A DNA stretch of 41,700 bases from Thermoplasmata archaeon (GTDB lineage Archaea; Thermoplasmatota; DTKX01; JAHFTX01), in NCBI GenBank assembly GCA_023265395.1, contig JAHFTX010000028.1, positions 1-41,700 of the forward strand, given 5' to 3'. The notes under the pieces were generated by a model. It worked only from the letters and a program-made list of their open reading frames with translations. It ran no database searches and was not told the DNA's origin. The translations under genes were made by a program, and so were the position numbers. This document shows positions 5,395-38,212 of the stretch, piece by piece; position 1 is the first letter of the stretch, and each line of letters opens with the position of its first letter.

Positions 5395-5886
5395 ATGGTG
5401 GCGACCGAGCTCTTGCTGGTGCTCCGCATCGCCCATGTGCTGTGCGCCGCGCTCTGGTTCGGCGCCGAGATGCTCTGGCATTCCCTGCTCTGGGAGGTCC
5501 CGCAGCGCGATTCGCCCGAAGCGGTGGGTGAGCGGCTCGGCCCGCTGCTCGGACCATCGACCAAGATGCTCGAGGGCGCAGAGGTCGCCACGATCGTCAG
5601 CGGGCTGCTGCTCCTGTCCGTGATCGGTGTCGGCCCTGGATGGTTCTCCACCCCGCGCGGCCTGCGCTTCTTGGGGGCGATGGCCCTGGCGGTCGGTGCC
5701 TTCCTGCTGGGGCTGGTGAGCGAGCGCGCGCTGGGCACGGCGCTGCTCACGGGCGTCGGACGGCCCATCGTGCCGCTGGCCGAGCGAGTCCAGCGGCTGC
5801 GGCTCGGGCGCCGCCTCGTCTCGCTGGAGCTCCTGCTTCTGACCTGCGTGCTGCTGCTGATGGTCCTGCAGACGGCTGGGTACTAG
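5395..5886 (+). CDS. small integral membrane protein (about 4 TM helices), function unknown
   Basis: ATG 5395 is preceded by AGGAGG 10 nt upstream. The hydrophobic helices are spaced like a TM bundle (MVATELLLVLRIAHVLCAALWFGAEML...; LLLLSVIGVGPGWF; FLGAMALAVGAFLLGLV; LLLLTCVLLLMVLQT). Composition is balanced, unlike the overlapping junk frames. Confidence 0.5.
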   Translation: MVATELLLVLRIAHVLCAALWFGAEMLWHSLLWEVPQRDSPEAVGERLGPLLGPSTKMLEGAEVATIVSGLLLLSVIGVGPGWFSTPRGLRFLGAMALAVGAFLLGLVSERALGTALLTGVGRPIVPLAERVQRLRLGRRLVSLELLLLTCVLLLMVLQTAGY

Positions 5887-7700
5887 CCGCGCTCGCTGCC
5901 GGTGACGGCCACCACCTCGATGGTGCCATCGGCATAGATCGGGAGGTAGGGCGCATGACGGAACTTCTCGCGTGCGGCGCCCTCGAGCCTCGGGGGCGTC
6001 TGCCATTGCTCGAGGGCGACGCCGTCGTCGAACGCGCTCGAGAGCACCACGGCATCGACCCGATGCGATCCCGATGGGCTCGGTTGCGGCTGGCGCGGAT
6101 CGGGCCGATAGGGGTCGTCCGAGAGGAGCAGCTCACCTCCCTCCTCCCAGCTGGCATGCAGCCCCCCCGCTCCAAAGAGCGACGAGCTGAGCCGATGGTC
6201 GCTGACGACGGCTGCATCATCTGGGAGGGTCGCAGCGGCCCAGACGACCCCGTTGAGCTCGGCCGCGGTCGTGCCCTCCTGAAAACCACCGACCGCGCTC
6301 GCGTTCGGTTGCGCGCCCAGCGGGAGAACGAGCAGCAGGGACACCAGCCCCGCGATCGGCAGGACTCGGGCGCGGGGGCCGATTCCCCTGCGCGCGCCGA
6401 GGTGCTCCCACAGGGCGCGGGCACCAAGGCCGATGAAGAGCGACGCGGGGAGCCACACGAAGGGCATCACCCGATAGGAGAGCAGCACGGTGCTGCGGCT
6501 GGCGATCGCCAGCACGAGGACGAGCCCCTGCGAGAGGACCCACACGAAGAGGAACAACCCGCCGCGGCGGAAGGGCGCCAGCGTGAAGCCGGCGGCGCAG
6601 AAGGAGAGCACCAGCAGCAGCGGCAGCAGCCCGACCAGCTCGCGCGAAGGGACGGAGACCGCGATCCCCGGTATCGGCCCCAGCAGCGCGACCGCGAACA
6701 CTCCTGCTGCACCGACAACATAGAGGAGCCAGTTGGTCAACCCCTTGGCGGCCGAGGGGTAGGTGTACCTCCGACGGAACACCAGCAGCCGCCGACGCAG
6801 CAGCACGAGCAACGGGAGGAGAGCGACCGCGCCGGCGGAAAGGCCGACGAGCACCGACGGTGGGAGGCCGGTGCCCCGGACGAGGATCTGCTGCCCAAAG
6901 GGACCCCCCAGCTCCCCCCAGTAGGCACCAAGGAACACCGCCAGCGGTGCGAGGATGGCAAGCCTCGGAAGCAGCACCATGCCGTCGGTGCGCACGGCGC
7001 GCAGCTCGTCGACGAGGAGGATGATCCCCAGCGGCAGCAGGGTCAGGGCCGCCGTCAGGTGATGGGTGAGCACCAGGGCGCTGCCGCAGAGCAGCCCCCC
7101 CATGGCCGAGAGCGGGCGACGGGGTGCCATGGCCACGAGCAGCACCACCGCCAACCCCAGCGGCTCGGCAAGCGCTGCGGGCATCGGATGGCTGCCGCCA
7201 AAGACCAGCGGCATCGCAGCGGCATCGACGAAGGCCGCCACCAGTGCCGCGACCCGGTCCTGCAGCAGCCAGTGCGCCAGCAGGAAGGCCATCAGCACGG
7301 TCAGCGTGTTGAGGGCCGGCACCACGACCTGCAGCAGCGGGAGCAGCCCCTGCTGCGTCGCGACGCCCGTGGCGCCACTCGGGAAGGGGCCTGCCGACCC
7401 TAGGCCACTGAGCAGCGCCAGCGAGTCGATGACCACCTCCATGCCCGGAAAGTAGGGGTAGGTCACCCCCCAACCAAGGTAGGGTGCCGGGACGGTCCCG
7501 CGCTCGAGCAGCGCCTCGGCCAGCCACAGGTACTCGCCGCTGTCGCTCCCCCAGAGCACGGCGTGCAGCAGCGGCTGCAGGCGCAGCAGCAGCCCCAGCA
7601 GCAGCGCGGAGCCCAACGCAGCGAGGACCCAGCGACGCGAGGATCCGTCGGCGACGCTCCCGGGGCGCAGGTCGGCCCCCTGCAACGGACGCGACACCAT
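5883..7700 (-). CDS. polytopic membrane protein, GT-C-type glycosyltransferase-like (ArnT/PMT/DUF2079-like)
   Basis: ORF 5883..7847 (-). The first 49 codons are Arg/Pro-rich, so the start was moved to ATG 7700 (MVSRPLQGADLRPG...). There are more than 10 predicted TM helices, with a soluble C-terminal domain of about 150 aa after the last TM. Converges with the 5395..5886 gene. Confidence 0.5.
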   Translation of the reverse strand: MVSRPLQGADLRPGSVADGSSRRWVLAALGSALLLGLLLRLQPLLHAVLWGSDSGEYLWLAEALLERGTVPAPYLGWGVTYPYFPGMEVVIDSLALLSGLGSAGPFPSGATGVATQQGLLPLLQVVVPALNTLTVLMAFLLAHWLLQDRVAALVAAFVDAAAMPLVFGGSHPMPAALAEPLGLAVVLLVAMAPRRPLSAMGGLLCGSALVLTHHLTAALTLLPLGIILLVDELRAVRTDGMVLLPRLAILAPLAVFLGAYWGELGGPFGQQILVRGTGLPPSVLVGLSAGAVALLPLLVLLRRRLLVFRRRYTYPSAAKGLTNWLLYVVGAAGVFAVALLGPIPGIAVSVPSRELVGLLPLLLVLSFCAAGFTLAPFRRGGLFLFVWVLSQGLVLVLAIASRSTVLLSYRVMPFVWLPASLFIGLGARALWEHLGARRGIGPRARVLPIAGLVSLLLVLPLGAQPNASAVGGFQEGTTAAELNGVVWAAATLPDDAAVVSDHRLSSSLFGAGGLHASWEEGGELLLSDDPYRPDPRQPQPSPSGSHRVDAVVLSSAFDDGVALEQWQTPPRLEGAAREKFRHAPYLPIYADGTIEVVAVTGSERG

Positions 7701-11123: not shown

Positions 11124-14100
11124 CTAGGGGCCGAGGTTCTGCTGGTCGGCGAGGATCGGGCTGGCCAGGGAGTGTCCCTCGGGCGTCGTGCCGCCGACGT
11201 AGCGGAAGTCCTGCAGGAAGTAGCGCTTCCGACCGCCCTGTTCCTCGACGCGCAGCAGGTCGCTGTTGGAGAGCTTGGTCAGGTGGCGGCTGACGGTCGG
11301 CTGCGGCACGTCCAGTGCCCGCACCAGCTGTTGCTGGTTGATCCCTGGTGCGTCACGGACCGTGCGCAGCAAGAGCCGCTGGAACGTGGTCAGGCGCACC
11401 ACCCTGGTCGGCGGGATCATGGCCGCGGGGAAGTAATGCTTGTACCGTCCGCTGTTGCGTGCCAGCACGTAGCCCTGCTTCTCGAGCATCGCCAGGTGGT
11501 AGGTCAGCACGCCGTTGGAGAGTCCGAGCGCCCGTTGGATCTCCCGATAGTAGGTGCCGGGGTTCTGCTTGATGAACCCGTTGATCTCACCACGGGTGAA
11601 GTTGTCGAGGACCTCCTCCTTGCGGACGCGGGTGTACAGCGGCACCAGGACGGCGAAGATGAATCGGAAGCGCCCCCACTCGGTGCCCGCGACCATGCCC
11701 ACGACCAGCGCGCCCACGCCCAGCGGCGCCAGCAGCACCCACCAGCCCATGGAGGGGGTCCGCACCGGCGCGGTCGGGGGGGCTGCCCGCAAGGCGACGG
11801 AGTCACTGCTGGTGGCGATCTCCCGTCCCGCATGGTTGGTCAGGGTCGCACCAAAGGCATAGGTACGCCCGATCCGCGCGTTCTCGGGGACCTCGACGAG
11901 CAACGGTAGCGACAGCGCCTGGCCCGGCTGGAGGTTGAGGTCGGTCAGCGGCACGGTCGGGTCGGCAAGCACCACACCAAACCCCGGCGGGGAGGAGAGG
12001 GCCAGCTCGAGCCCGACGGCGTGGGGTCCGCTCACGTGGGTGACGGTGACGCTGCCATGGAGGGTCTGCCCCGGTCGGGCACCCGGCGGGAGCTCCAGAC
12101 GCACGCTGAGCACGGCCTCGGGGGCCCCCCCTGGGTTTGGGCCGCCGACCGGTGGTGGCTGGATGGTCAGCCGGGTGGTGCCATGCAGCAGCGCACCGCT
12201 CCAGGGCGGCAGATCCTGCGGCGGCGGAGCCTGCAGGGGGTCGACCACCCACAACTCCACCTCCTCGGTGTGGGGCAAGACGGAGAGCAGCCCTGGGGCA
12301 AGATGCAACGGCAGGTCCACCGCCAGGGTGTGGACCATGCCTGCTCCTAGGGCCGGGACGGTGGCGACGCTGCCGCTCAATCCCAGCTGCTCGGAGGAGA
12401 TCTGCAGGTCGCTCTGCGGCAGGGCAGGCCCAAGGTTGGTGATCGTCAGGTTGACCGCTAGGTGCGGTTGGGGAACGTCGGTGACGAGGGTGCTGGGAAG
12501 GTCCCAGCGCAGGTCGAGCGGCCGCAGGTCGAAGGGCAGCTGCAGCTTGAGCACCTCGCTGCGGTGGTGGCCATCATCGGCCTGAACCTGCAGCTGGACC
12601 TGCCCGCTGACCTCCCCGTGCAACGCCGGGTCGACGACGAAGGACCAGGCTGGCGGCAGGTCGAGCGCCGCGTCGTTCCAGCTGCCGGCGCGCTGCGACT
12701 GCAGCACGCCCAGGTGCAGCTCGCCGCCCTCGAGCTGCTGGGTCAGCCGCGGGTCGAGCACCACGCTCCCCTGCAGCATGAGCGGACCGCTCAGCGGCTG
12801 CAGCGGCAGGGCGCTGCTCAGCAGCAGCTGGGGCGCTGCGTAGGGGGCTTCGACGCGGACCGGAAGCTGCACCGGGTCGGACCAGCGGCCGGACGGGTCG
12901 ACGGCAGCGACCGTCAGCTGGTGGGTGCCGACGGTCAGGGCCGCCTGCGTGGCCGCGGTCAGGGAGGGGCCTTGTTCCACCAAGCCGTCACGGTCGGACC
13001 ACCAGCTGACCTGCAGGGCGTCGGTCGAGCTCTCGTCGACGTCGGCGACCGTGGCGGTCAGCAGCGCCTCCTGTGGCTCGTCCTGCACCAGCACCAGCGG
13101 TTCCGTCAGCGGGAGCGCCAGTTCCGGGAGGTCGACCGTGGGGGCACTGTTGGGGGTGAACCCGAGCGCCAGCTGCTGCAGCGACAGGGTCCCTGCCCCC
13201 TGTGCGCGGATGGTCAGCGGCACATCGAGCTGGAGGCTGCTCGGATCCCCCCATTGGGTCCAGGCGTCGGGCACCGCCGCTGCCGCCTGTGCCGCAACGA
13301 GGGAGGGCAGCAGGTCGACCCGCAGCAGGTCGGCCTCGTAGCTGATGTTGAGCTCCATCAGCTGCACCGAGGACCCAGCGGTGCCACTGACCTCCATGCG
13401 CAGCGCGCGCCAGGGGCGCCCGGCCTCGTCGGTGGTGGGGGTGGCGCCCGTCTGGCCGCTGGCGACGGCATCGTCGAGCGTCTGGAGGTCGAGCGGGGCG
13501 ACGATGGTGCCGTTGAGGTTGCTCTCCGACGACCAGAGCGGCGAGGGGCCGCTGGCGGTCCCAAGGGAGAAGCCCAAGGGACCGGCGCCGTAGCGGAAGG
13601 CCAGCGAGCGCATCGCCCCGTCGTCGCCTGAGGTGCCGGGCTCGGCAGCGAGCATGCGCGCGGCACCGGCCTTGACCGCATCGTCGTTGGGACCGGCGCC
13701 AGGGACGATCGGGTGATAGGCCAGGTCGTAGCCGAGCCAGCCCTGGGGGCGCGCACCGTTGCTGATCGAGACGCGACGACCTTGGAGGTTCTCGAAGGCC
13801 CCGAGGACCACGGCTCCGACGTCATCGTTGACGACGCCATCGATCACCACATCGCGGTAGGGCGCCCCGATGGCGACGTCGGCGACCTTGTCGTGGGTGA
13901 CGTCCTCGGAGATGGCCAGTGCGTTGCCGAATCCCTCGGCGACCTGTCCGCCGACGAGCGTGCTGTCGGCCCCTCGGCCGTCGACCTGCGCGGCGCCGCC
14001 CAGGAAGAGCCCGACGGACCCGGCGCCCCCGGTGGGGGCACCGACCAGCAGGTCGTCGATGCCGTCGCCGGTGACATCGCCGTCGAGCAAGACCGCACTG

Positions 14101-15347
14101 CCGAAGCCGTCGTCAGCAGCGGCCCCTTGGAGGGTGAGGTTGGGGAACGCGCCCACCTGCGCGCCGCCGTAGTAGACCCGCGCTGTGCCGGTGCCCACGA
14201 AGAGCGGGGGTGCGCCGACGGCAAGGTCGGGAGCGCCATCGCCGTTGAGGTCGCCACCGACGGAGAGGGAGAGGCCGAAGCCATCGAAGTCGACGCCCGT
14301 GCTCAGCCGCAGGTCGTAGACCCCGTCCATCCCCGGGCCTCCGAAGTAGAGGTAGGCCTTGCCCGAATCATCCCCGACGTCGTTGTGCATGTCGCCGACG
14401 ACGACATCGGGCCACCCATCGCCGTTGAGGTCCTCCCCACCAGCGACCGAGATCCCGTAGAGGGAGAACATCGCGAAATCGCCGGTGAGCACCAGGTCGG
14501 GAGTGGTGTCGAACACCTGACCGCCGAAGTAGACGAAGGCGGCCCCTGCGCAGGTGATGACCAGGTCATCGACGAGGTCGCCGTTGAGGTCCCCCGCACC
14601 GCTGACGTCCCAGCCGAAGTAGGTCCCGCCGGGGCCTTGGATCATGATCGGGATGGGCTTGGCGATCCCCGGATCGGAATCGGCGTCGATGCCCCACCAG
14701 TCGGTGTAGAGCCACGCGGTGTCTGCCTCAGGCTCGGTGACGACGAAATCGGAGCCCCCATCACCGGTGACGTCCCCGACCACGGCGATCGCATACCCAT
14801 AGCGGCCACCCTGGGCCACGGGCGGCAACAGCCCGCCGCCTGCGAGGTCGATCTGGTCCCCCTTGACGTCGAGGCGGAGCTGCGCTTGCAGCACCGTCGC
14901 GCCGACGGGCAACAGCAGCGGTGGGAAGGAATCGTCCGTGCCCTGCAGGAGCAGCCCTGACTGCGCGCTGCCATCGGCGAGCACGAACTGCCGCCCCGGT
15001 GCGCCCATGCCCGTGCCGCCAAAGAGCGCGAGCTCCGAGGAGCCGACGGTCAGGTGCGCCGAGGTCGGGAGCGCCGTCGGGTCGCTCCCGCCGGGGGTCT
15101 GAGTCGCGACGATCCGCACGCTGGCTGCCTGCAGGTGGGCATCGAAGGGCAGTCGCAACCCCGTAGCGGCCACTCCGCCGTCGTCGGGGTCGACCGCCAG
15201 CTCGACGCGGTCGCTGCCGTCAGCAAACGTCGTGGTCGTCGTCGCTTGGGTCAGCGAAGGGAGCAGGCTCACCAGCACCAACAGGGAAACCCAGAGCATC
15301 GCGCCCCGGCGGACGCGATCGGTGCGGCGGTCGCGGTGCGTCCCCAT
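11124..15347 (-). CDS. single-pass membrane protein with an extracellular FG-GAP repeat beta-propeller plus Ig/PKD-like region and a cytoplasmic C-terminal tandem winged-helix DNA-binding region (ArsR/MarR-like)
   Basis: Signal peptide MLWVSLLVLVSLLPSLTQA follows a basic n-region; Met17 at 15299 is an alternative start. There are multiple integrin-alpha FG-GAP repeats (GDVTGDGGSDFVVTEP, GDLNGDLVDDLVI, DLNGDGWPDVVVG, GDLNGDGAPDLAVGAP, GDVTGDGIDDLLVGAP, DVTHDKVADVAIGAP). A TM helix (MGWWVLLAPLGVGALVVGMVAG) is followed by RFRF. Two wHTH units come next: GTYYREIQRALGLSNGVLTYHLAMLEKQGYVLARNSGRYKHYF and INQQQLVRALDVPQPTVSRHLTKLSNSDLLRVEEQGGRKRYF. Confidence 0.8.
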   Translation of the reverse strand: MGTHRDRRTDRVRRGAMLWVSLLVLVSLLPSLTQATTTTTFADGSDRVELAVDPDDGGVAATGLRLPFDAHLQAASVRIVATQTPGGSDPTALPTSAHLTVGSSELALFGGTGMGAPGRQFVLADGSAQSGLLLQGTDDSFPPLLLPVGATVLQAQLRLDVKGDQIDLAGGGLLPPVAQGGRYGYAIAVVGDVTGDGGSDFVVTEPEADTAWLYTDWWGIDADSDPGIAKPIPIMIQGPGGTYFGWDVSGAGDLNGDLVDDLVITCAGAAFVYFGGQVFDTTPDLVLTGDFAMFSLYGISVAGGEDLNGDGWPDVVVGDMHNDVGDDSGKAYLYFGGPGMDGVYDLRLSTGVDFDGFGLSLSVGGDLNGDGAPDLAVGAPPLFVGTGTARVYYGGAQVGAFPNLTLQGAAADDGFGSAVLLDGDVTGDGIDDLLVGAPTGGAGSVGLFLGGAAQVDGRGADSTLVGGQVAEGFGNALAISEDVTHDKVADVAIGAPYRDVVIDGVVNDDVGAVVLGAFENLQGRRVSISNGARPQGWLGYDLAYHPIVPGAGPNDDAVKAGAARMLAAEPGTSGDDGAMRSLAFRYGAGPLGFSLGTASGPSPLWSSESNLNGTIVAPLDLQTLDDAVASGQTGATPTTDEAGRPWRALRMEVSGTAGSSVQLMELNISYEADLLRVDLLPSLVAAQAAAAVPDAWTQWGDPSSLQLDVPLTIRAQGAGTLSLQQLALGFTPNSAPTVDLPELALPLTEPLVLVQDEPQEALLTATVADVDESSTDALQVSWWSDRDGLVEQGPSLTAATQAALTVGTHQLTVAAVDPSGRWSDPVQLPVRVEAPYAAPQLLLSSALPLQPLSGPLMLQGSVVLDPRLTQQLEGGELHLGVLQSQRAGSWNDAALDLPPAWSFVVDPALHGEVSGQVQLQVQADDGHHRSEVLKLQLPFDLRPLDLRWDLPSTLVTDVPQPHLAVNLTITNLGPALPQSDLQISSEQLGLSGSVATVPALGAGMVHTLAVDLPLHLAPGLLSVLPHTEEVELWVVDPLQAPPPQDLPPWSGALLHGTTRLTIQPPPVGGPNPGGAPEAVLSVRLELPPGARPGQTLHGSVTVTHVSGPHAVGLELALSSPPGFGVVLADPTVPLTDLNLQPGQALSLPLLVEVPENARIGRTYAFGATLTNHAGREIATSSDSVALRAAPPTAPVRTPSMGWWVLLAPLGVGALVVGMVAGTEWGRFRFIFAVLVPLYTRVRKEEVLDNFTRGEINGFIKQNPGTYYREIQRALGLSNGVLTYHLAMLEKQGYVLARNSGRYKHYFPAAMIPPTRVVRLTTFQRLLLRTVRDAPGINQQQLVRALDVPQPTVSRHLTKLSNSDLLRVEEQGGRKRYFLQDFRYVGGTTPEGHSLASPILADQQNLGP

Positions 15348-20083: not shown

Positions 20084-20941
20084 CTACGCCCTGCGCAGCG
20101 CCTCCTCGACGATGTCCATCAGCAGGGCGGCGGTCACCAGCAGGCGCCGGTCGAGCTGGAAGCTGGGGTCGGCACTGGCATCGAGGTACCAGGTGTCCCC
20201 GATGATCTGGAAGCGCTGGTCCAGGCGGGCGATGCGCACGTTGTTGGCCTCGATGAAGTAGTGTGCGGGCAGGAAGGTCAGGATCCGTCGCAGGATCGCC
20301 ATCCCGGCACTGTCCTCGATGATGCGGGCGAAGGGGCGGTCGTAGCCGTCATGGATGTGCCATTCGCTCCGCAGGAAGGAGCGGCCCCACTGCCGCTTGA
20401 GGTAGCCGACCAGCTGTCCGGTGGTGCTGTCGGTGATCCGGAAGGTCGCCCAGGCATCGACGATCTGGGTCTGTTGGACCGCGAGCAGCTCGCGGGTCTT
20501 GCTCTCATCGGTGAAGATGCGGATGTCCTCCTTGAACCGCAGCAGCTTCTGCGCACAGAACCCCAACTGGTTGTTCTGGCCGTCGAGGATGTAGTACTTG
20601 TTGGCGATCGCGAAGACCTTCTGCCGCAGGATGAAGGAGGAGTGGTGCCAGATCGGGGGGACCATCCCCGGCTGGGCCACCTGCTGCTGCTGCGGCGCCC
20701 CTGCGTAGGGTTGCTGCGGGGGGTAGCCCGGTTGCGGTGGCGCTTGGTACTGCGGTTGCGGAGCATACCCGGGCTGGTGCTGCGGGTAGGGCTGCTGCTG
20801 GTACTGCGGTGGCGCACCATACCCCTGCTGCTGCTGGTAGCTCTGCTGCTCGTACTGCTGCGGCGGGTATCCCTGCTGCGCATAGGAAGGAGGCGGGGTC
20901 ATCGGGCGCTCACCATCCTCGGGCATCGGCTCCGAGGGCAT
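20084..20941 (-). CDS. phospholipid scramblase / LURP-one-related (tubby-like fold) family protein with an N-terminal Pro/Gln/Tyr-rich low-complexity domain
   Basis: About 90 aa of PPQQY/QQQPY repeats are followed by ILRQKVFAIANKYYILDGQNNQLGF. A C-terminal YLDASADPSFQLD plus a hydrophobic helix (LLVTAALLMDIV) parallels the scramblase Ca-binding motif DADNFGIQFPLD and C-terminal helix. ORF 20084..20992; Met18 at 20941 was preferred because it leaves intergenic space with the divergent AMMECR1 gene. Confidence 0.55.
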   Translation of the reverse strand: MPSEPMPEDGERPMTPPPSYAQQGYPPQQYEQQSYQQQQGYGAPPQYQQQPYPQHQPGYAPQPQYQAPPQPGYPPQQPYAGAPQQQQVAQPGMVPPIWHHSSFILRQKVFAIANKYYILDGQNNQLGFCAQKLLRFKEDIRIFTDESKTRELLAVQQTQIVDAWATFRITDSTTGQLVGYLKRQWGRSFLRSEWHIHDGYDRPFARIIEDSAGMAILRRILTFLPAHYFIEANNVRIARLDQRFQIIGDTWYLDASADPSFQLDRRLLVTAALLMDIVEEALRRA

Positions 20942-21023
20942 GAACCATTCGCCACGACCAGCGGCTGCTGCAGGCCAGTCCTGCGCACGCAACCTCTATG
21001 CCCCCTGCGGAGTCCGTGCCCGC

Positions 21024-21765: not shown

Positions 21766-22893
21766 TTGAAGTGCCTCGAGTACGTCGCCAAGGAACTGTT
21801 CCGCCGCCATGGCATCCCCACACCCTCGGGGATCGTCGTGACCACGCCCGAGCAGATCGACAGCACGGCCGTGCCCGGGCCGGTCGCCCTCAAGGCGCAG
21901 GTGCTCATCGGCGGCCGGGGAAAGGCGGGCGGGATCCAGTTCGCATCGAGCGTGCCGGAGGCCCGTCAGAAGGCAGCGGCGATCCTCGCGATGAAGATCC
22001 GTGGATTCCCGGTCCACTCGCTTCTGATCGAACCCAAGCTCGACATCGCCCGCGAACTCTACCTGAGCATCCTCATCGACCGCGCAGCGCGGCTGCCGGT
22101 GATCCTCGCCTCTGCCGCCGGGGGCATCGAGATCGAATCCGTCCCCGAGGAGCAGCTCTTCCGTCGGACCATCGACCCGTTGATCGGCCTTCAGCCCTAC
22201 ATCACCCGTGAGCTCAACGCCAAGCTCGGCCTGACGGGCGAGACCGCCACCCAGGTCGCGACGATCGTCCAACAGGCCTACGAGGTGTTCGTCCAGGAGG
22301 ACGCCGAGCTGGTGGAGATCAACCCGTTGGTGATCACGACTCAGGGGAAGGTCCTCGCCGGCGACGGCAAGCTCGTCATCGACAACGACGCCCTCTTCCG
22401 CCACAAGGACCTGCCCGAGCAGAAGGCCGACGAGTTCACCGACCTCGAGGCCGAGGCGCGTGCCAAGGGGATCGCCTTCATCCAACTCGAGGGGGACATC
22501 GGGGTCATCGCCAACGGTGCGGGCCTGACGATGGCGACCCTCGATGCGCTCACCCTCGTCGGCGGCGCGCCGGGGATCTTCCTCGACCTTGGTGGCACCG
22601 ACGACCCCCGGCAGGTCACCGGCGCCTTCGAGCTGATGCTCAAGGCCCACCCCAAGGTCATCTTCCTCAACATCTTCGGCGGCATCACCAAGTGCGACAC
22701 CGTCGCTTCCGGCGTCGTCGCCGCGCTCAAGGGGATCGCCGCGCCCCCGCCCGTCATCGTGCGGATCAAGGGGCTCAACGAGGTGCAGGCCAAGGGGATC
22801 CTCGCCGATGCCGGCCTGACGAGCGTCGACTACCTCGAGGAGGGCGCGCAGCGGGCCGTCGATCTGCATCCAGGGACCGCCAGGGGGGCGTAG
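21766..22893 (+). CDS. sucC: succinyl-CoA ligase (ADP/GDP-forming) beta subunit
   Basis: TTG start 21766. MKCLEYVAKELFRRHGIPTP is an ATP-grasp N-terminus. The C-terminal CoA-ligase domain is GIAFIQLEGDIGVIANGAGLTMATLD. The stop abuts the sucD ATG. A TATA-like CTTTAAG lies about 40 nt upstream. Confidence 0.85.
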   Translation: MKCLEYVAKELFRRHGIPTPSGIVVTTPEQIDSTAVPGPVALKAQVLIGGRGKAGGIQFASSVPEARQKAAAILAMKIRGFPVHSLLIEPKLDIARELYLSILIDRAARLPVILASAAGGIEIESVPEEQLFRRTIDPLIGLQPYITRELNAKLGLTGETATQVATIVQQAYEVFVQEDAELVEINPLVITTQGKVLAGDGKLVIDNDALFRHKDLPEQKADEFTDLEAEARAKGIAFIQLEGDIGVIANGAGLTMATLDALTLVGGAPGIFLDLGGTDDPRQVTGAFELMLKAHPKVIFLNIFGGITKCDTVASGVVAALKGIAAPPPVIVRIKGLNEVQAKGILADAGLTSVDYLEEGAQRAVDLHPGTARGA

Positions 22894-23763
22894 ATGGCCA
22901 TCCTCCTCGACCTGAGCACCCGCCTGCTCATCCAAGGGATCACCGGCCACCAGGGGACCTTCCACGCCCAGGCGTGCCGGGAGTTCGGCACCTACGTCGC
23001 AGCGGGGGTCACCCCCGGCAAGGGAGGCACGACCCAGGGCGGCGTGCCGGTCTTCGACACCGTCGCCCAAGCGGTCGCGGCGCAACGGCCCAACGTCAGC
23101 CTGATCTTCGTCCCGGCGCGCTTCGCCATGGATGCGGTCTTCGAGGCGATCGACGCCGGGGGGATCCAGACGGTCATCGTGATCACCGAGCACATCCCCT
23201 TCCATGACGCGTTGCGGATGGTCACCTACGCGCGGCTGCGCGGCGTGCGCATCGTCGGGCCCAACTGCCCCGGGGTCATCAGCCCCTGCCAGGCGGTCAA
23301 GGCCGGGATCATGCCCTCGAGCATCTTCACGGCCGGTGACCACGCGGTCATCTCCCGCAGCGGCACGCTCACCTACGAGATCGTCCACCACATGAGCGTC
23401 AACGGCTTGGGCCAGTCGACCGTGCTGGGGCTCGGCGGGGACCCGGTGGTGGGCACCACCTTCATCGAAGCGCTGGCGCTGCTGCAGGCGGACCCCGAGA
23501 CGGAGAAGATCGTCCTGGTCGGCGAGATCGGCGGCAGCGCCGAGGAGGATGCCGCCGCCTACATCACGCAGCATGTCACCAAGCCCGTGGTGGCCTACAT
23601 CGCCGGCCACAGCGCGCCCGAGGGCAAGCGCATGGGCCATGCCGGTGCGATCATCACCCGCGGCAAGGGCACCGCCGCCTCCAAGGCCCACGCGCTCGAG
23701 AAGGCCGGCGTCGCCGTCGCCAAGCGCCCCTTCGAGGTCCCCCAGCTGCTGAAGAAGGCCTAG
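22894..23763 (+). CDS. sucD: succinyl-CoA ligase alpha subunit
   Basis: [24 protein letters not shown]... The phosphohistidine loop context is [13 protein letters not shown] and the CoA-binding N-terminal domain is present. 289 aa. Confidence 0.9.
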
Positions 23764-24743
23764 GGGAGCAGGCGCAAGAGCGCCCACAGCAGCAGGTTGC
23801 CACCGATCACGCTGAGCACCAGACCTGCCACGACGAACACCAGCAGCGGGATCTTGGGCGTCACCAGCACCTGCGTCTCACCAGCATCCTCGAGGGCGCG
23901 CAGCTGCTCCTCGAGCGCCTTGCCCTCGAGCGGCGCTGCCCGCAGGAACGAGCCGGTCCAGACGTGCTCCCCGCCGTGGAACCGGCTGAGCAGCCACACA
24001 TGGGAGCTGCGGACCTCATCGATGGGGGCGCAGTAGGCGTTGAACATGTGCAGCCCCACCGTCGAGTCGCGCAGGTTGCGGACCATCAATGCCAGTGGCA
24101 CCAACAGGACCAGCAACACCGCGTTGGTCAGCACGACCCAGCTGAACGGATAGGACTGCTGCGCGATCGACGGCACGCTCGCCAGCGGCAGGCTCGTCAG
24201 CAACGGCGCGAGGCTGGGTGATCGGGGGAAGAGGACGCAGAGGGCGATCAGCGCATTCTTGTCGGCTCCGCCGGCGATGACCCGCAGCCGGTAGAGGGCG
24301 TAGAAGCCACCTTGGACGAGCAGGGCCAGCAGCGCCGCCGCCACCACACCGACCCCTCCCGTGCCTCCGTCAGGACGCGGTGCAAGCGCGATGACCACCA
24401 GACCCGCGACCGCCAAGAGGCACCCGACGGTCAGCGCCAGGTTCCATCGGTGCGCGATGGCGTCATCGGCAGGGTCCGGCTGGTCGGTTGCATCGGGCTC
24501 ACCCTCGAAGAAGGTCCCGTTGTAGAGCGCCAGGACGAACACCAGGATCGGGCCCAGCGGCAGCAGCAGCAGCGGCAGCGGTGCTCCGGCCGCGACGAGC
24601 TCGACGACCCACAGGCCGCCTCCGACGCAGGCCATCGCCACCCACAGCAGGTTCGACGCCAAGCGCGTGCGCAGATCGGTCGCCGCGCCGATGGAGAGCA
24701 GGGCCACTGCGACCGCGACTCGCGCCACGTCAATCCACGTCAT
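23760..24743 (-). CDS. archaeal prepilin/preflagellin peptidase (A24 family, PibD/FlaK/EppA-like) with an extended C-terminal membrane domain
   Basis: First catalytic Asp is in an N-terminal cytoplasmic loop after TM1 (LSIGAATDLRTRL). Second Asp is in the signature IAGGADKNALIALCVLFP (the G-G-A-D-x-K motif of type IV prepilin peptidases). Polytopic membrane protein. Overlaps the sucD stop by 4 nt (convergent). Confidence 0.72.
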   Translation of the reverse strand: MTWIDVARVAVAVALLSIGAATDLRTRLASNLLWVAMACVGGGLWVVELVAAGAPLPLLLLPLGPILVFVLALYNGTFFEGEPDATDQPDPADDAIAHRWNLALTVGCLLAVAGLVVIALAPRPDGGTGGVGVVAAALLALLVQGGFYALYRLRVIAGGADKNALIALCVLFPRSPSLAPLLTSLPLASVPSIAQQSYPFSWVVLTNAVLLVLLVPLALMVRNLRDSTVGLHMFNAYCAPIDEVRSSHVWLLSRFHGGEHVWTGSFLRAAPLEGKALEEQLRALEDAGETQVLVTPKIPLLVFVVAGLVLSVIGGNLLLWALLRLLP

Positions 24744-24852
24744 GGTCGGCCTGCACCTCTGGGGGTCCTCGACGTGCGTGGGGCGGTTGCACGCGCCCCG
24801 TCATCGCGCTCGTCGGTGCCTGTACCCATCCTAGAAGAGCCTCCCCCCAAAC

Positions 24853-24860
24853 CTTAAAAG
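24853..24860 (+). promoter_or_regulatory. TATA-like element (CCTTAAAAGG) in the divergent peptidase/KaiC intergenic region; near-leaderless for the KaiC-like gene
   Basis: CAAACCTTAAAAGGAGG lies 24-31 nt upstream of ATG 24884 and is flanked by the inverted GCCTCC/GGAGGC. Its near-palindromic AT core could serve both directions. Confidence 0.4.
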
Positions 24861-24883
24861 GAGGCTTCCTGCTTGACGAAGCG

Positions 24884-25642
24884 ATGGGTGGCACGGGGCC
24901 CAAGGCGGAACGTCTACCCCGACTGGCGTCTGGAATCGAGGCGCTCGACCGGGCCCTCTCGGGCGGGATCCCCATCGGCAACAGCGTCCTGCTGGCTGGC
25001 AGCTGCGGCACGGGGAAGACCACCCTGGCGGCCGAGTTCCTGCTGGCGGGCGCACGGGCCAAGGAACCCTCGCTGCTGCTGGCTGTCACCGAGGACGCAG
25101 AACGGCTCCTCGAGAACCTGCGCACCTACGAGTTCTTCGACCAAGCCTTGGTCGGCCCGGGGAAGTTCGAGCTCCTCGACGTCGCCGAGCTCTACAAGGG
25201 ATCGCCCCTGGAGAAGACTACAGTCCTGGGGGCTGCCGACGTGCCGGTGCTGGTCAAGCTCCTGCTCGATCAGGTCGACAAGCGCAAGACCCGACGACTG
25301 GTGATCGATAGCCTGACGGGGTTGTGCTTGCGCTTCCCCAGCAAGGAGCTCGTCCGCGACTTCGTCTCGACGCTGTCCAAGGGGCTCTCCAAGCGCGGGG
25401 TCACCTGCCTGCTCATCAGCGAGCTCGAGGCAGGCTCGACCGGTCACAGCTCCCACGGCGTCGAGGACGCCGTCGTCGATGGCGTGCTGCAGCTGGGCAA
25501 CACCGTCAGCCGTGGCCACCTGCTGCGCACGTTGCAGATCGTCAAGATGCGCGGCACGCCCCACAGCCGCACCCGCTACGTGCTCGAGCTCAGCCACTAC
25601 GGGGCGATCCTCGTGCCGCTGCTGCGGTCGGGGAAGGCCTAA
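24884..25642 (+). CDS. KaiC-like / RecA-superfamily single-domain ATPase (ArlH/FlaH-like size)
   Basis: In frame with ORF 24488..25642, starting at ATG 24884 (MGGTGPKAERLPRLASGIEALDRAL). Walker A is LLAGSCGTGKTTLA. Walker B-like is TRRLVIDSLTGL. C-terminal VTCLLISELEAG...LQIVKMRGTPHS is typical of KaiC/RadA-like proteins. About 252 aa. Confidence 0.8.
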   Translation: MGGTGPKAERLPRLASGIEALDRALSGGIPIGNSVLLAGSCGTGKTTLAAEFLLAGARAKEPSLLLAVTEDAERLLENLRTYEFFDQALVGPGKFELLDVAELYKGSPLEKTTVLGAADVPVLVKLLLDQVDKRKTRRLVIDSLTGLCLRFPSKELVRDFVSTLSKGLSKRGVTCLLISELEAGSTGHSSHGVEDAVVDGVLQLGNTVSRGHLLRTLQIVKMRGTPHSRTRYVLELSHYGAILVPLLRSGKA

Positions 25643-25653
25643 GGAGGAGCTGC

Positions 25654-26247
25654 ATGGAACCCCTCGAGGAGAAGGTCCGCTCGCAGCTGGAGGAGACTCA
25701 GCCGGGCAGCGCCGTCTCGCTGGTGACCGACCTCTCGGGCTACTTCGATGCGCTCAAGGGGTTCGTCGGCTACGCCTCGGCAGCGGGGCTGCACACCATC
25801 TACATCACCGCGACGATCCCCAGCGCCGTCGTCCATGGGCAGCTGACCAGCCAGGGCCTCAACCTCGAGGACGCCCATTTCATCGACTGCATCAGCTTCA
25901 TGGTCGGCGGGCCGCGCCAGGAAGAGGGTCCCTACATGTTCGTCGAGAGCCCCACCATGCTCGAGACGATCCTCGTGAAGGTCGAGCTGTGGATGAAGCG
26001 GCTCGGACCCGACCACGACTACGTGGTGTTCCTCGACAGCGTCAACACGCTGGCGATGCACAACGACGACAAGATCGTCCAAGAGTTCCTGCACTACCTG
26101 ATCACCTCGCTGCGCGCGCGCAAGGTCCGCTGCGTCGTCCTCTCCGTCGAGGGGCAGACCCCCAAGGAGATCGAGACCATCCTCAAGCTCCTCTGCGATG
26201 AGAGCATCGCCGCGCTGCCAGAAGCCGAGGACGGCGCCTCCGAGTGA
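25654..26247 (+). CDS. P-loop-less KaiC/RecA-like paralog (degenerate ATPase-fold protein)
   Basis: AGGAGG lies 7 nt upstream of ATG 25654. Blocks align with the upstream KaiC-like protein (HDYVVFLDSVNTLAMH vs RRLVIDSLTGLCLR; KVRCVVLSVEGQ vs GVTCLLISELEAG). The Walker A position reads GYASAAGLHTIYIT with no GKT/S. Confidence 0.55.
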   Translation: MEPLEEKVRSQLEETQPGSAVSLVTDLSGYFDALKGFVGYASAAGLHTIYITATIPSAVVHGQLTSQGLNLEDAHFIDCISFMVGGPRQEEGPYMFVESPTMLETILVKVELWMKRLGPDHDYVVFLDSVNTLAMHNDDKIVQEFLHYLITSLRARKVRCVVLSVEGQTPKEIETILKLLCDESIAALPEAEDGASE

Positions 26248-26362
26248 GCCCACCCGCGCGCCACCAGCCCCGTGGGAATGTCTATCGTGGCACTCGTTAG
26301 CATGGCTCACGGGGTGTGATATAACTCCTTTGCGTGCATCTCTGTCCCCTCCGATGAAACCC

Positions 26363-26369
26363 TTATATA
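26363..26369 (+). promoter_or_regulatory. strong archaeal TATA box (TTATATA) with a purine-rich BRE-like GAAA upstream; pilin promoter
   Basis: GATGAAACCCTTATATACTG. TATA is about 55 nt upstream of ATG 26422. GAGGA sits 8 nt before the ATG as an SD. Confidence 0.55.
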
Positions 26370-26421
26370 CTGCGCGAACAGGGTCAGGGGTGCGGCGCCT
26401 CGGTGCCGCAGAGGACACAAC

Positions 26422-27063
26422 ATGAAGTACGTAAAGTGGGCAAATCTGAACAAGGAGGAGCAGGCGGTTTCGCCTGTGATCGCTACCATCCTGATGGTCG
26501 CGATCACGGTCGTCCTGGCCGGCGTCCTGGTGGTCTACATGCAGAGCTTCCAGAACGTCGGTGGCGGGACGAACGTCGTGGCGAGCATCTCCGCCAAGAC
26601 GTTCTCCAACCCCCAGGACCCGATGACCCGCAATGGCGGGGGCTGGACGGTCGAGGTCGTCTCCGTCAAGAGCGGTACCCTGAACATCGCGGACATGACG
26701 GTCAACGTCAAGGGATCGAGCGGTGCCAACCTGGGCAGCCTGGTGGGCGCAACGCCGACCCTCAAGGACACCTCGGGAACGGTCGACTACTACCTGTTCT
26801 CCGAGGCCCTGGCCACCTGCGACTACTGGAGCGGCGCGGCGGTAACGGCCGACTGCACCGGTGCCACGGGCAACGAGTTCAACACCATGGAGAACGCGAC
26901 CATCGTCCTATTGGACAACGATGCTAGCGGCACCCTGACGGCGTCGGACACCGTCCTGGTATTCAAGGATACCAACGGTGATGGAACCAACGACATCTCC
27001 AGCCAATCGGTCGTGGAGCTCAAGGCCGCCACCACCAAGGTCGCGCAGACCGATCTCAACTAG
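26422..27063 (+). CDS. archaeal type IV pilin-like protein precursor (class III signal peptide, DUF361/Pilin_N-type N-terminus)
   Basis: MKYVKWANLNKEEQA-VSPVIATILMVAITVVLAGVLVVY is a charged n-region followed by the conserved VSPVIAT.LMVAITVVLA hydrophobic segment. The mature part is Thr/Ser/Gly-rich and beta-rich (about 190 aa). A terminator hairpin lies immediately downstream. Confidence 0.8.
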   Translation: MKYVKWANLNKEEQAVSPVIATILMVAITVVLAGVLVVYMQSFQNVGGGTNVVASISAKTFSNPQDPMTRNGGGWTVEVVSVKSGTLNIADMTVNVKGSSGANLGSLVGATPTLKDTSGTVDYYLFSEALATCDYWSGAAVTADCTGATGNEFNTMENATIVLLDNDASGTLTASDTVLVFKDTNGDGTNDISSQSVVELKAATTKVAQTDLN

Positions 27064-27085
27064 ATCGGCTCAGCGACCACACCAA

Positions 27086-27123
27086 GGAGTGGCGGCACAG
27101 GCCGCCACTCCTCCCCTTTTTCC
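27086..27123 (+). terminator. stem-loop (11-bp perfect stem GGAGTGGCGGC / GCCGCCACTCC, loop ACAG) followed by CCCCTTTTTCC; candidate intrinsic-type terminator for the pilin gene
   Basis: Read directly from the sequence about 23 nt after the pilin stop. The T tract is at about 27117-27121. It could also serve the convergent carbamate kinase gene. Confidence 0.55.
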
Positions 27124-27199: not shown

Positions 27200-28207
27200 C
27201 TACTCGTCGTGGCGCCTCGCCCCAGCAAGGATGTGTGTTCCGATCCGTGGATCGGTGAGGTCGGCCGCATGTTCGAGGCTGGTGATGACGGCGTGACAGC
27301 CGGTGGCCTCGACGAACTCGACGGCCGCCTGCACCTTGGGTCCCATCGAGCCGGGCGGGAAGTAATCGTGCTCGAGGAGGTTGCGCGCGTCTCCGGCAGT
27401 CAACCGGGTCAGCTCGAGGGCTTTGGTCGTGCGATAGTCCAGCAGGACCTTGGGCACGTCCGTGAGGATCGCCAACATCGAGGCGCGCAGCTGGGTCGCC
27501 AGCAACGCCGATGCCAAGTCCTTGTCGATGACCCCCTCGATCCCCCGCAACGTGCCATCGGTCCCTTCGACGACGGGGACCCCTCCGCCTCCGCAAGCGA
27601 CGACGAGCACCCCCTGTCGGACGAGCATCTCGATCGCCGGCAGCTGCAGGATCCGCAGGGGCCGGGGTGAGGCGACGACGCGGCGCCAGCTTCCAGGCTC
27701 GACCTCGATGGTGGGGATCCCTGCAGCCTGCAGCGCGGCTGCGCGGGCCTGTGGCAGCAAGGGACCGATGGGCTTGCTCGGACGCTGGAACTTCGGGTCC
27801 GCAGGGTCGACGACCACCTGCGTGACGATCGTGGCCACGTCGGGAACTGGTGTGATCCCGCGGGCGCGCAACGCTGCCCGCAGCTCCTGCTCGATCAGGT
27901 ACCCCAGCTGGCCCTGGCTCTGCGCCCCGCAGAGGTCGAGGGTCAGGGCTGGCACATGGGCGCGGGCAAGCTCCATGCGCTGGAGGATGTCCCCTACCTG
28001 CGGGCCGTTGCCATGGGTGAGCACGATGCGGTAGCCCCGCTCGATCAGGGTCACGACGCCGCGCAGTGCCAGGGCAAGGTGGGCCCGTGCCTCGTCGGTG
28101 GTGCCCCTGCTGGCGGGGGAACTGATAGCGTTGCCACCCAGCGCGACGACGATTAGCGCACCCGGCGATGGGATGGTCACGCTCCGCGACTCCGCCGAGA
28201 GCGCCAT
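27200..28207 (-). CDS. arcC: carbamate kinase
   Basis: ALIVVALGGNAI...ERGYRIVLTHGNGPQVG..., 335-aa ORF. The canonical CK N-terminus begins near IVVALGGNA, so the true start may be GTG about 28180 rather than ATG 28207. Confidence 0.78.
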   Translation of the reverse strand: MALSAESRSVTIPSPGALIVVALGGNAISSPASRGTTDEARAHLALALRGVVTLIERGYRIVLTHGNGPQVGDILQRMELARAHVPALTLDLCGAQSQGQLGYLIEQELRAALRARGITPVPDVATIVTQVVVDPADPKFQRPSKPIGPLLPQARAAALQAAGIPTIEVEPGSWRRVVASPRPLRILQLPAIEMLVRQGVLVVACGGGGVPVVEGTDGTLRGIEGVIDKDLASALLATQLRASMLAILTDVPKVLLDYRTTKALELTRLTAGDARNLLEHDYFPPGSMGPKVQAAVEFVEATGCHAVITSLEHAADLTDPRIGTHILAGARRHDE

Positions 28208-37657: not shown

Positions 37658-38212
37658 ATGCTCCGCCCGCTGCAGACGGTCAAGAAGGTCTGCGTGCTGG
37701 GACCCGCGGGGGTGGGGAAGAGCTCGCTCGTCGCGCGGCTGCTCGACCCGGCAGCACCCTTGGCGAGCGCACCGACTCCCAGCGCCGTCGTCTCCCGCAT
37801 CTCGCTGGAGGTCCTCCCGCCCGTGCCAGGGTTCCAAGGGATCGTCGTCACCCTGCTGCTCTTCGACCTGCCGGCAGAGCAGCTGCAGCCCCGCCTGCGA
37901 CAGTCCTACTACATCGGCGCCGAGGGTGCGATCGTCGTCGCTGACGCTTCGGATCCCGCGAGCCTGGGACAGTCCGTACGGTGGATCCATGACTTCCATG
38001 AGGTGGCCGGGGACAAGCCGGTGCTGCTGCTGGCCAACAAGGTCGACGCCCTGCGCGACTTTTCGCTCGTGGACCATACGACCCACCCGCCGCACCTGCG
38101 CCAGCCCTACGGCGGTCTGCGGCCACACCTCGTCTCGGCCCTGACCACCGCCACCCTCCGGCCCGCGATCGAGGAGTTCGTGCGGCGGATCGTCACCACC
38201 AATCCCTTCTGA
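37658..38212 (+). CDS. Ras-superfamily small GTPase with atypical G3 motif (MglA-like?)
   Basis: G1 is VCVLGPAGVGKSSL, G4 is LLANKVD and G5 is VSAL. The G3 position reads LLFDLPAEQ instead of DxxGQ. Confidence 0.6.
   Translation: MLRPLQTVKKVCVLGPAGVGKSSLVARLLDPAAPLASAPTPSAVVSRISLEVLPPVPGFQGIVVTLLLFDLPAEQLQPRLRQSYYIGAEGAIVVADASDPASLGQSVRWIHDFHEVAGDKPVLLLANKVDALRDFSLVDHTTHPPHLRQPYGGLRPHLVSALTTATLRPAIEEFVRRIVTTNPF

Follow-up and report, generated by a model that had tools for sequence, protein, structure and literature searches.

KaiC-like ATPases paired with predicted inactive paralogs adjoin type IV pilin genes in Thermoplasmatota

Few predicted signalling proteins of archaea are as abundant as the KaiC-like ATPases, almost none of which has, to our knowledge, a known input or output. 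The KaiC-family groups arCOG01171, arCOG01174 and arCOG01175 are strongly associated with type IV pilus loci and have been proposed as regulators (Makarova, Koonin, Albers 2016, PMC4858521). One of these groups, arCOG01175, is tagged 'inactivated' and lies beside FlaI/TadC in Archaeoglobus (Table S4, PMC4858521). ArlH (FlaH) is a single-domain KaiC-like protein of ~230-250 amino acids (aa) that works with type IV pilus-type machinery and, according to a preprint, binds ArlI under the control of its nucleotide and phosphorylation state (bioRxiv 10.1101/2021.03.19.436134). In Haloferax volcanii, the KaiC-like protein CirA reduces the transcription of arl genes, and mutations in cirA appear in suppressors of the motility defect of a pilA[1-6] deletion (PMC10983859). 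Pilin genes that stand alone, distant from PilB/PilC, are normal in archaea (PMC12448462; PMC4858521); the highly expressed pilin genes of Cuniculiplasma divulgatum (CdiPA/B) lie ~500 kb from the assembly operon (PMC12448462). Here we describe a pair of KaiC-like genes situated between a prepilin peptidase gene and a type IV pilin gene on contig JAHFTX010000028.1 of a Thermoplasmata archaeon (assembly GCA_023265395.1), together with the relatives of this pair in other genomes.

The whole stretch of DNA analysed, hereafter the window, is the 41.7 kb contig, with ~68% G+C. A preliminary description of the window had placed four genes, with their flanking signals, at 23760-27123. Public gene calls for the same sequence contain the same four products (327, 252, 197 and 213 aa), and Pfam, NCBIfam, fold and motif evidence bears out the identities first given to them, namely peptidase, KaiC-like ATPase, KaiC paralog and pilin:

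23760-24743, minus strand: A24B (FlaK/PibD-type) prepilin/preflagellin peptidase, 327 aa (Pfam, profile against PDB)
24744-24883, no strand: intergenic region between the divergent peptidase and KaiC1 genes
24884-25642, plus strand: KaiC1, single-domain KaiC-family ATPase, 252 aa (Pfam, PDB)
25654-26247, plus strand: P-loop-less KaiC/RecA-fold paralog, predicted pseudo-ATPase, 197 aa (fold, family-wide Pfam matches)
26422-27063, plus strand: PilA-type archaeal type IV pilin precursor, 213 aa (Pilin_N, TIGR02537)

We interpret the KaiC-like genes, with moderate confidence, as a Thermoplasmatota-wide accessory or regulatory module of the type IV pilin pathway that does not constitute a self-sufficient pilus system. 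Most likely, the module regulates the supply of pilin or its assembly by machinery encoded elsewhere. A functional link to pilin production, processing or delivery is suggested because the neighbours of the module are pilins and a peptidase, and never an assembly core. In the mechanism that we propose, KaiC1 would be made together with the P-loop-less paralog, to which most lineages add a third paralog whose Walker A motif is dead, and these proteins probably build a mixed RecA-type ring. The nucleotide or autophosphorylation state of the ring would serve as a switch, setting the amount of PilA-type pilin that is made, processed or passed to a remote assembly ATPase and platform. The adjoining pilin gene would use a TATA promoter of its own and yield a short mRNA, hairpin-capped and hairpin-terminated, and the divergent A24 peptidase would cut off the 15-residue pilin leader after Ala15. 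By analogy with ArlH, CirA and KaiC, a switch would be the most economical role for KaiC1 and its dead paralogs.

This arrangement was first described as unprecedented, which is too strong. The kind of association is already known, because KaiC-family arCOGs, including inactivated ones, have been reported at type IV pilus loci (PMC4858521). The published proteins are likewise single-domain and KaiC/RAD55-like, and the published examples adjoin a FlaI/TadC core, whereas only pilins, a prepilin peptidase or both are found here. Similarly, ArlH is encoded beside arlI/arlJ in archaellum loci (PMC4858521 Table S4), and KaiC1 has neither gene nearby. CirA resembles the present proteins, by description, in being a KaiC-like protein tied to pilins, in its case by genetics. 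It is encoded by a lone gene inside the arl cluster with no dead paralog partner described, whereas the window holds a pair beside a pilin. What is new is the fixed pairing or trio of live and dead KaiC-like proteins, its association with pilins or the peptidase alone, and its breadth in Thermoplasmatota. This phylum was barely sampled in 2016.

We searched one genome per species for relatives of the P-loop-less paralog and identified them in 174 species genomes, nearly all from Thermoplasmatota. The labels of nearly all of these genomes read Thermoplasmata, Thermoplasmatota, Methanomassiliicoccales, Aciduliprofundum/DHVE2 or 'Methanobacteriota', and one genome bears the label Aenigmatarchaeota. 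Complete chromosomes with the module include CP070808.1, CP070739.1, CP070751.1 and CP070767.1. Among the matches listed in the profile search there is no cultured organism, only names of metagenome-assembled genomes or metagenomes. The paralog family comprises 77 clusters when searched with a single query and 930 protein clusters when searched with a profile.

We called open reading frames (ORFs) in 84 related loci and the window (1.16 Mb, with 10 kb flanks) and searched them with the paralog profile and with iterative searches seeded by the window peptidase, KaiC1 and pilin. Gene order was counted in 46 well-covered loci, whose sequence extends at least 2.5 kb upstream and at least 3 kb downstream of the paralog. 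KaiC1 lies immediately upstream of the paralog in 45 of the 46 loci, and a third KaiC paralog (KaiC3) lies immediately downstream in 28. One or more same-strand pilin genes occur within 2.5 kb of the paralog in 28/46 loci, and pilin genes occur within 5.5 kb downstream in 31-32/46. A peptidase adjoins in 5/46. All 84 pilin-like ORFs in the 1.16 Mb sit within 5.5 kb downstream of the paralog; one, in locus L027, overlaps the paralog 3' end. Paralog identity across these lineages is 35-64%.

The four-gene layout of the window is confined to a small clade, and what relatives elsewhere retain is its core, KaiC1 and the paralog with or without the third paralog, followed by pilins. Only in the window's clade (L001, L006, L010-L013 and L091) does a divergently oriented peptidase gene adjoin the module. 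Pilins vary within the same clade: they lie directly downstream in the window, form convergent clusters in L009-L012 and are absent from L001, L006, L090 and L091. Loci from Aciduliprofundum/DHVE2 carry the KaiC trio with no adjoining pilin. All-against-all clustering of the neighbours across loci identified no conserved membrane partner.

The preliminary description had found no assembly ATPase or platform protein in the cluster, and this extends to the whole window. ORFs of the window were chosen by a filter based on G+C at third codon positions (GC3) and scanned with Pfam, and none of them matches T2SSE (PilB/ArlI) or T2SSF (PilC/ArlJ/TadC). A hidden PilB or PilC was also sought in the window by Pfam scans that included unannotated ORFs at E up to 5, again with no match. 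Thus, the window does not combine a VirB11/PilB/ArlI ATPase with a TadC/PilC/ArlJ platform in one locus, as a complete type IV pilus or archaellum would. The signature of VirB11/PilB-type secretion ATPases is likewise missing from all 85 sequences covered by a motif scan (the window and the 84 loci with their 10 kb flanks), and no secretion ATPase appears in the public Pfam calls of L001-L004. Assembly of the window pilin would depend on PilB and PilC encoded remotely in this genome.

The lack of a secretion-ATPase signature within 10 kb in 84 loci would also be expected if a mixed KaiC-like ring itself extracted and polymerised pilins, replacing PilB/PilC where these are lacking. We regard this as most improbable, and keep it in view because no VirB11-family ATPase was found in Ca. 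Methanomassiliicoccus intestinalis (Table S3, PMC4858521) and M. luminyensis is reported to bear pili-like appendages and to express a pilin gene highly (preprint). The absence of VirB11-family ATPases is likewise stated for Methanomassiliicoccus species (PMC4858521), and the module occurs together with pilins in loci labelled Methanomassiliicoccales. However, the module's neighbourhood contains neither a polytopic platform protein nor a conserved membrane partner, Aciduliprofundum bears the trio and has ordinary FlaI/TadC loci (PMC4858521), and Ca. Methanomethylophilus alvus does have a clade-4 secretion ATPase (Table S3, PMC4858521). It is also very improbable, in our judgement, that in those Thermoplasmatota lacking both a PilB/ArlI ATPase and TadC, as reported for some Methanomassiliicoccales, the hetero-oligomeric ring of KaiC1 and dead paralogs is the machine, or an indispensable chaperone, for pilin extraction and polymerisation. 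If true, type IV-like filaments could be built by a RecA-superfamily route independent of VirB11.

KaiC1 is predicted from its sequence to be a catalytically competent single-domain ATPase of the KaiC family. It matches the Pfam KaiC domain with 161 bits (E 3.8e-47; cutoff 26.6), and among proteins of known structure it is closest to cyanobacterial-type KaiC (E down to 4.8e-47) and to two single-domain KaiC-like proteins, PH0284 (E 6.8e-30) and PH0186. KaiC1 contains a Walker A motif (GSCGTGKT), a Walker B motif (RRLVIDS), TED at the position of the KaiC catalytic EE and KMRGT at the position of KaiC KLRGT. In the PDB alignment, GSCGTGKT, VIDS and TED line up with GTGKT, IDS and FEE of the KaiC CI domain. 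Walker A is intact in all 79 KaiC1 sequences. A role as a circadian clock KaiC was rejected: KaiC1 has one domain of 252 aa and scores 99-134 bits with NCBIfam circ_KaiC models whose cutoffs are 408-546. The KaiA and KaiB families are absent from the Pfam matches of the scanned window ORFs.

The ATPase had first been described as being of ArlH/FlaH size. The size holds, and the resemblance to ArlH does not extend beyond it: KaiC1 reaches 32 bits with the ArlH model NCBIfam NF052589 (cutoff 215) and 50 bits with PRK06067 (cutoff 194), and the PDB structure of FlaH (4yds) is matched only at E 3.7e-4, compared with 1e-41 or better for KaiC. We therefore rejected identification of KaiC1 as ArlH or FlaH. 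These scores also speak against a docking role like that of ArlH, in which a ring of KaiC1 and the paralog would bind a remote PilB-type ATPase and gate pilin assembly, so that the motor and not expression would be controlled. The module lies beside a secretion ATPase in none of the 84 loci, whereas ArlH is encoded next to arlI (PMC4858521 Table S4). ArlH itself provides the precedent, given the control of ArlI binding by nucleotide and phosphorylation state that the preprint describes (bioRxiv 10.1101/2021.03.19.436134). KaiC1 has the size and fold class of ArlH, and the 'inactivated' arCOG01175 genes that adjoin FlaI/TadC in Archaeoglobus (PMC4858521) are also consistent with docking. On balance, we consider docking unlikely.

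The gene for the P-loop-less paralog begins 11 nt past the KaiC1 stop codon, with a Shine-Dalgarno (SD) sequence, GGAGGAG, inside the spacer. Alone, the window protein remains below Pfam thresholds (KaiC 17 bits, DUF7504 20.5 bits). Among 23 members of its family, however, 20 match KaiC, 17 match DUF7504, 16 match DUF7090 and two match DUF835. The G-x4-GK[ST] motif is absent from all 84 family members. Family alignments contain conserved FIDCIS, ESPTMLE and LDS motifs; LDS, which resembles Walker B, is invariant, as are several other positions. An AlphaFold2 model of the window paralog (predicted local distance difference test, pLDDT, 91.8) has PH0284 as its best Foldseek match (TM 0.72), followed by KaiC and RecA, with a probability of 1.00. 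Fold, family-wide Pfam matches and loss of the P-loop in 84/84 members together substantiate the initial description of this protein as a degenerate KaiC paralog. Sequence alone does not prove its descent from KaiC1: hhalign against KaiC1 is weak (probability 7%). Because of this weak profile-profile comparison, homology of the paralog to KaiC rests on its fold and on the family-wide Pfam matches. Inactivated KaiC-like ATPases such as arCOG01175 and arCOG03793/DUF835 likewise combine a KaiC/RecA fold with a lost Walker A.

In most lineages, a gene for KaiC3 (~245 aa) lies directly 3' of the P-loop-less paralog, for example at 10585-11319 in L002, 10524-11288 in L019 and 10515-11261 in L056, and in 42 other loci. 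KaiC3 is a clear paralog of KaiC1 by sequence comparison (hhalign 98%; Pfam KaiC E 1e-30). Its Walker A is altered to GxPGxG[TS]E in 45/45 sequences, with the lysine lost (K to T/S). Two of the three subunits are therefore predicted to be catalytically dead, since KaiC3 lacks the Walker A lysine and the P-loop-less paralog lacks the P-loop. The window lacks KaiC3, and its clade holds the two-gene version (KaiC1 and the paralog). In public gene calls, the KaiC1, paralog and KaiC3 genes overlap by 1-4 nt or follow each other closely. From the Walker A states and from these overlaps or the 11-nt spacer, the module is predicted to couple the translation of a single live subunit to that of one or two dead partners. 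KaiC3 also has weak Pfam similarity to Elp4/Elp5 (PAXNEB, Iki1), which hints at a mixed ring like that of Elp456.

The window peptidase was initially described as PibD/FlaK-like, with a GGADK motif, and further evidence agrees. It contains the archaeal type II C-terminal domain Arc_PepC_II (Pfam, 39 bits against a cutoff of 29.9, E 1.3e-9). NCBIfam FlaK matches partially, around GGAD (E 8.7e-10). The protein is assigned to the FlaK/PibD-type A24B peptidases but is not a FlaK ortholog, scoring 38.6 bits where the FlaK equivalog model has its cutoff at 330. A phmmer search of the PDB with the window peptidase alone found nothing; a profile of this protein and seven relatives was needed, and it matches FlaK (PDB 3S0X) at E 1.2e-10. 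D23 (ATDLRTR) and D161 (AGGADK) are invariant across the eight relatives and line up with the catalytic Asp motifs of 3S0X, ...vqDfrsR... and GGGDgK. Both catalytic Asp residues are thus present. Peptidase_A24 matches seven of the eight relatives, and the window protein itself is unmatched at E up to 0.1. The peptidase resembles FlaK/PibD (family A24B) in its two catalytic Asp motifs, polytopic membrane build and archaeal C-terminal domain, and at 327 aa is longer than the 237-aa 3S0X chain. Between the peptidase and KaiC1 genes, the sequence contains a palindromic CCTTAAAAGG at ~24861-24870, which could be a TATA-like element with promoter function.

The 213-aa product of the downstream gene is predicted, from its sequence and structural model, to be a PilA-type type IV pilin. 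Its N-terminus had been read as a class III signal, and it passes the cutoffs of both relevant models (Pilin_N, 37.9 bits against 25.2; TIGR02537, 41.6 against 20). The class III signal MKYVKWANLNKEEQA is followed by the H-domain VSPVIATILMVAITVVLAGVLVVY, and cleavage is predicted after Ala15, between EEQA, which ends MKYVKWANLNKEEQA, and VSPVIATILMVAITVVLAG. The residue preceding VSPVI is A or G in 73/78 related pilins, the H-domain is almost invariant, and position -2, usually E or K, is Q in the window pilin. The same Pilin_N H-domain, VSPVI[AG].ILMVAITV.LA, is found in the stand-alone PilA pilins of Hfx. volcanii and Cuniculiplasma, which PibD processes and a remote PilB/PilC assembles and whose genes, unlike that of the window pilin, are not reported beside KaiC-like genes. 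An AlphaFold2 model (pLDDT 87) contains a helix at 18-44 and then an all-beta head (beta-sandwich). A non-filament role, which had been offered as an alternative, is unsupported given this canonical signal and pilin architecture. Foldseek against the PDB returned no significant solved relative of the head, only weak CBM3-like matches.

Two further features were noted among these pilins. The head contains an acidic motif at residues ~160-185 (consensus D.D.D.K..AGD...VY.D), in which D165 is invariant and D176 nearly so in 99 homologs; this motif might be a metal-binding site of the pilin subfamily. In L088 (9020-15034), a homolog of the window pilin is followed by a 2004-aa protein with N-terminal Pilin_N, VWA and CARDB matches, which could be a giant pilin-anchored adhesin.

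The pilin gene has separate expression signals, and both the promoter and the hairpin terminator that had been proposed for it are present as a TATA box and a 12-bp hairpin with T-run (5'UTR, 5' untranslated region; MFE, minimum free energy):

26363-26369, plus strand: TATA box TTATATA, 59 nt upstream of the pilin ATG (from sequence)
26391-26410, plus strand: 5'UTR stem-loop of 8 bp, UGCGGCGC/GUGCCGCA (MFE -16.3 kcal/mol)
26411-26415, plus strand: Shine-Dalgarno sequence GAGGA, directly abutting the 5'UTR stem-loop
27085-27122, plus strand: terminator-like hairpin with a 12-bp GC-rich stem (27085-27112), then the T-run CCCCTTTTTC (MFE -27.9 kcal/mol, z-score -4.5)

Where related pilin genes have a TATA-like box, it is mostly placed 54-66 nt before the ATG. 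The 5'UTR hairpin recurs at related loci, where it abuts the SD, in some pairs with it, and is found in a conserved GGAGGACAnAAC-ATG context. Examples are 26391-26415 in the window, 11356-11398 in L018, 10593-10634 in L039 and ~60 other loci. We built a covariance model (R1) from 43 sequences, in an alignment fitted to the structure, which favours the hairpin. R1 finds 62 sites in the 1.16 Mb, of which 60 immediately precede a pilin ORF and another precedes a probably frameshifted pilin; the window hairpin is a weak member (17.8 bits). In the model-fitted alignment, 81% of cells pair, compared with 31-48% when partners are slid. Double changes occur in six of the eight hairpin pairs (in one pair, UA 32 and CG 18), and the covariation score is 0.33 compared with at most 0.09 in slid controls. 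An Rfam search at E up to 1 gave no match to the L018 hairpin, and in the window no Rfam family reaches its gathering score. A link between the hairpin and the KaiC genes was considered and ruled out, as the motif is found on KaiC-unlinked pilins too. The hairpin is therefore a general trait of these pilin mRNAs, and a covarying structure at the pilin ribosome-binding site is a candidate element of post-transcriptional control or stability.

Several observations weigh against a regulatory module of the pilin pathway. The main weakness is that the module contains no DNA-binding, RNA-binding or other recognisable output domain through which a signal could reach pilin expression or assembly. About one third of the loci have no adjoining pilin, and in the window's nearest relative (L091, L090) the peptidase, KaiC1 and paralog genes are present while a pilin gene is missing. 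Close homologs of the window pilin are stand-alone genes distant from any KaiC, and the 5'UTR hairpin also precedes pilins unlinked to KaiC (L085-L088).

The pilin-free loci, and in particular the trios of Aciduliprofundum/DHVE2, would be readily accommodated if the gene order reflected no pilus function. The KaiC set could serve in DNA repair, like RadC/KaiC-like RadA paralogs, or in general signalling, while mobile stand-alone pilin genes merely tend to sit downstream. KaiC1 resembles SSO2452 (E 1.8e-15), the pilins have their own promoter, and pilin orientation varies in the window's clade, being convergent in L009-L012. The stand-alone PilA-family pilin loci listed for Aciduliprofundum MAR08-339 have no KaiC neighbour (PMC4858521). 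Two observations are difficult to reconcile with such chance proximity. First, two different type IV pilus components recur as neighbours: pilins across most lineages and, within the window's clade, the peptidase. Second, the position of 84/84 pilin-like ORFs just downstream of the module would be hard to maintain by drift at 35-40% paralog identity. We consider an association devoid of pilus function quite unlikely, and continue to favour an accessory or regulatory module of the pilin pathway.

The cluster is flanked by sucCD and carbamate kinase genes, in agreement with the preliminary description; Pfam confirms the carbamate kinase, and the sucCD labels are carried over from that earlier reading:

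21766-22893, plus strand: sucC (label from the earlier reading)
22894-23763, plus strand: sucD (label from the earlier reading)
27200-28207, minus strand: carbamate kinase (Pfam amino acid kinase family)

Other Pfam matches in the window include carAB, SHMT, topoisomerase, AMMECR1, M20 peptidase, PfkB, several large PKD/FG-GAP surface proteins and a Ras-like GTPase. The last is a Ras/Roc-family small GTPase of 184 aa (37658-38212, plus strand; Pfam Roc E 3e-13, Ras E 7e-11) that adjoins a tRNA-Thr gene and a gene for a 1099-aa PKD-repeat protein. A 1407-aa ORF (11124-15347, minus strand) has N-terminal FG-GAP repeats and several C-terminal helix-turn-helix domains of winged-helix/MarR/HVO_0163 type, and would be either an unusual fusion of surface sensor and regulator or an over-extended ORF. 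A 302-aa protein (20084-20992, minus strand) contains a long low-complexity N-terminus rich in Q, P and Y and a conserved-looking C-terminal domain, and has no Pfam match. The 605-aa product of another ORF (5883-7700, minus strand), 16 kb from the cluster, is a polytopic membrane protein whose C-terminal domain is soluble; it has no Pfam match even at E up to 5, T2SSF included.

A compact and very widespread module of this kind would give a KaiC-type switch a concrete output, namely pilin supply or piliation. It would also provide a natural system for the study of RecA-type rings that mix active and inactive subunits. Finally, the module reaches lineages with poorly understood surface filaments, such as the Methanomassiliicoccales-like archaea of gut and sediment.

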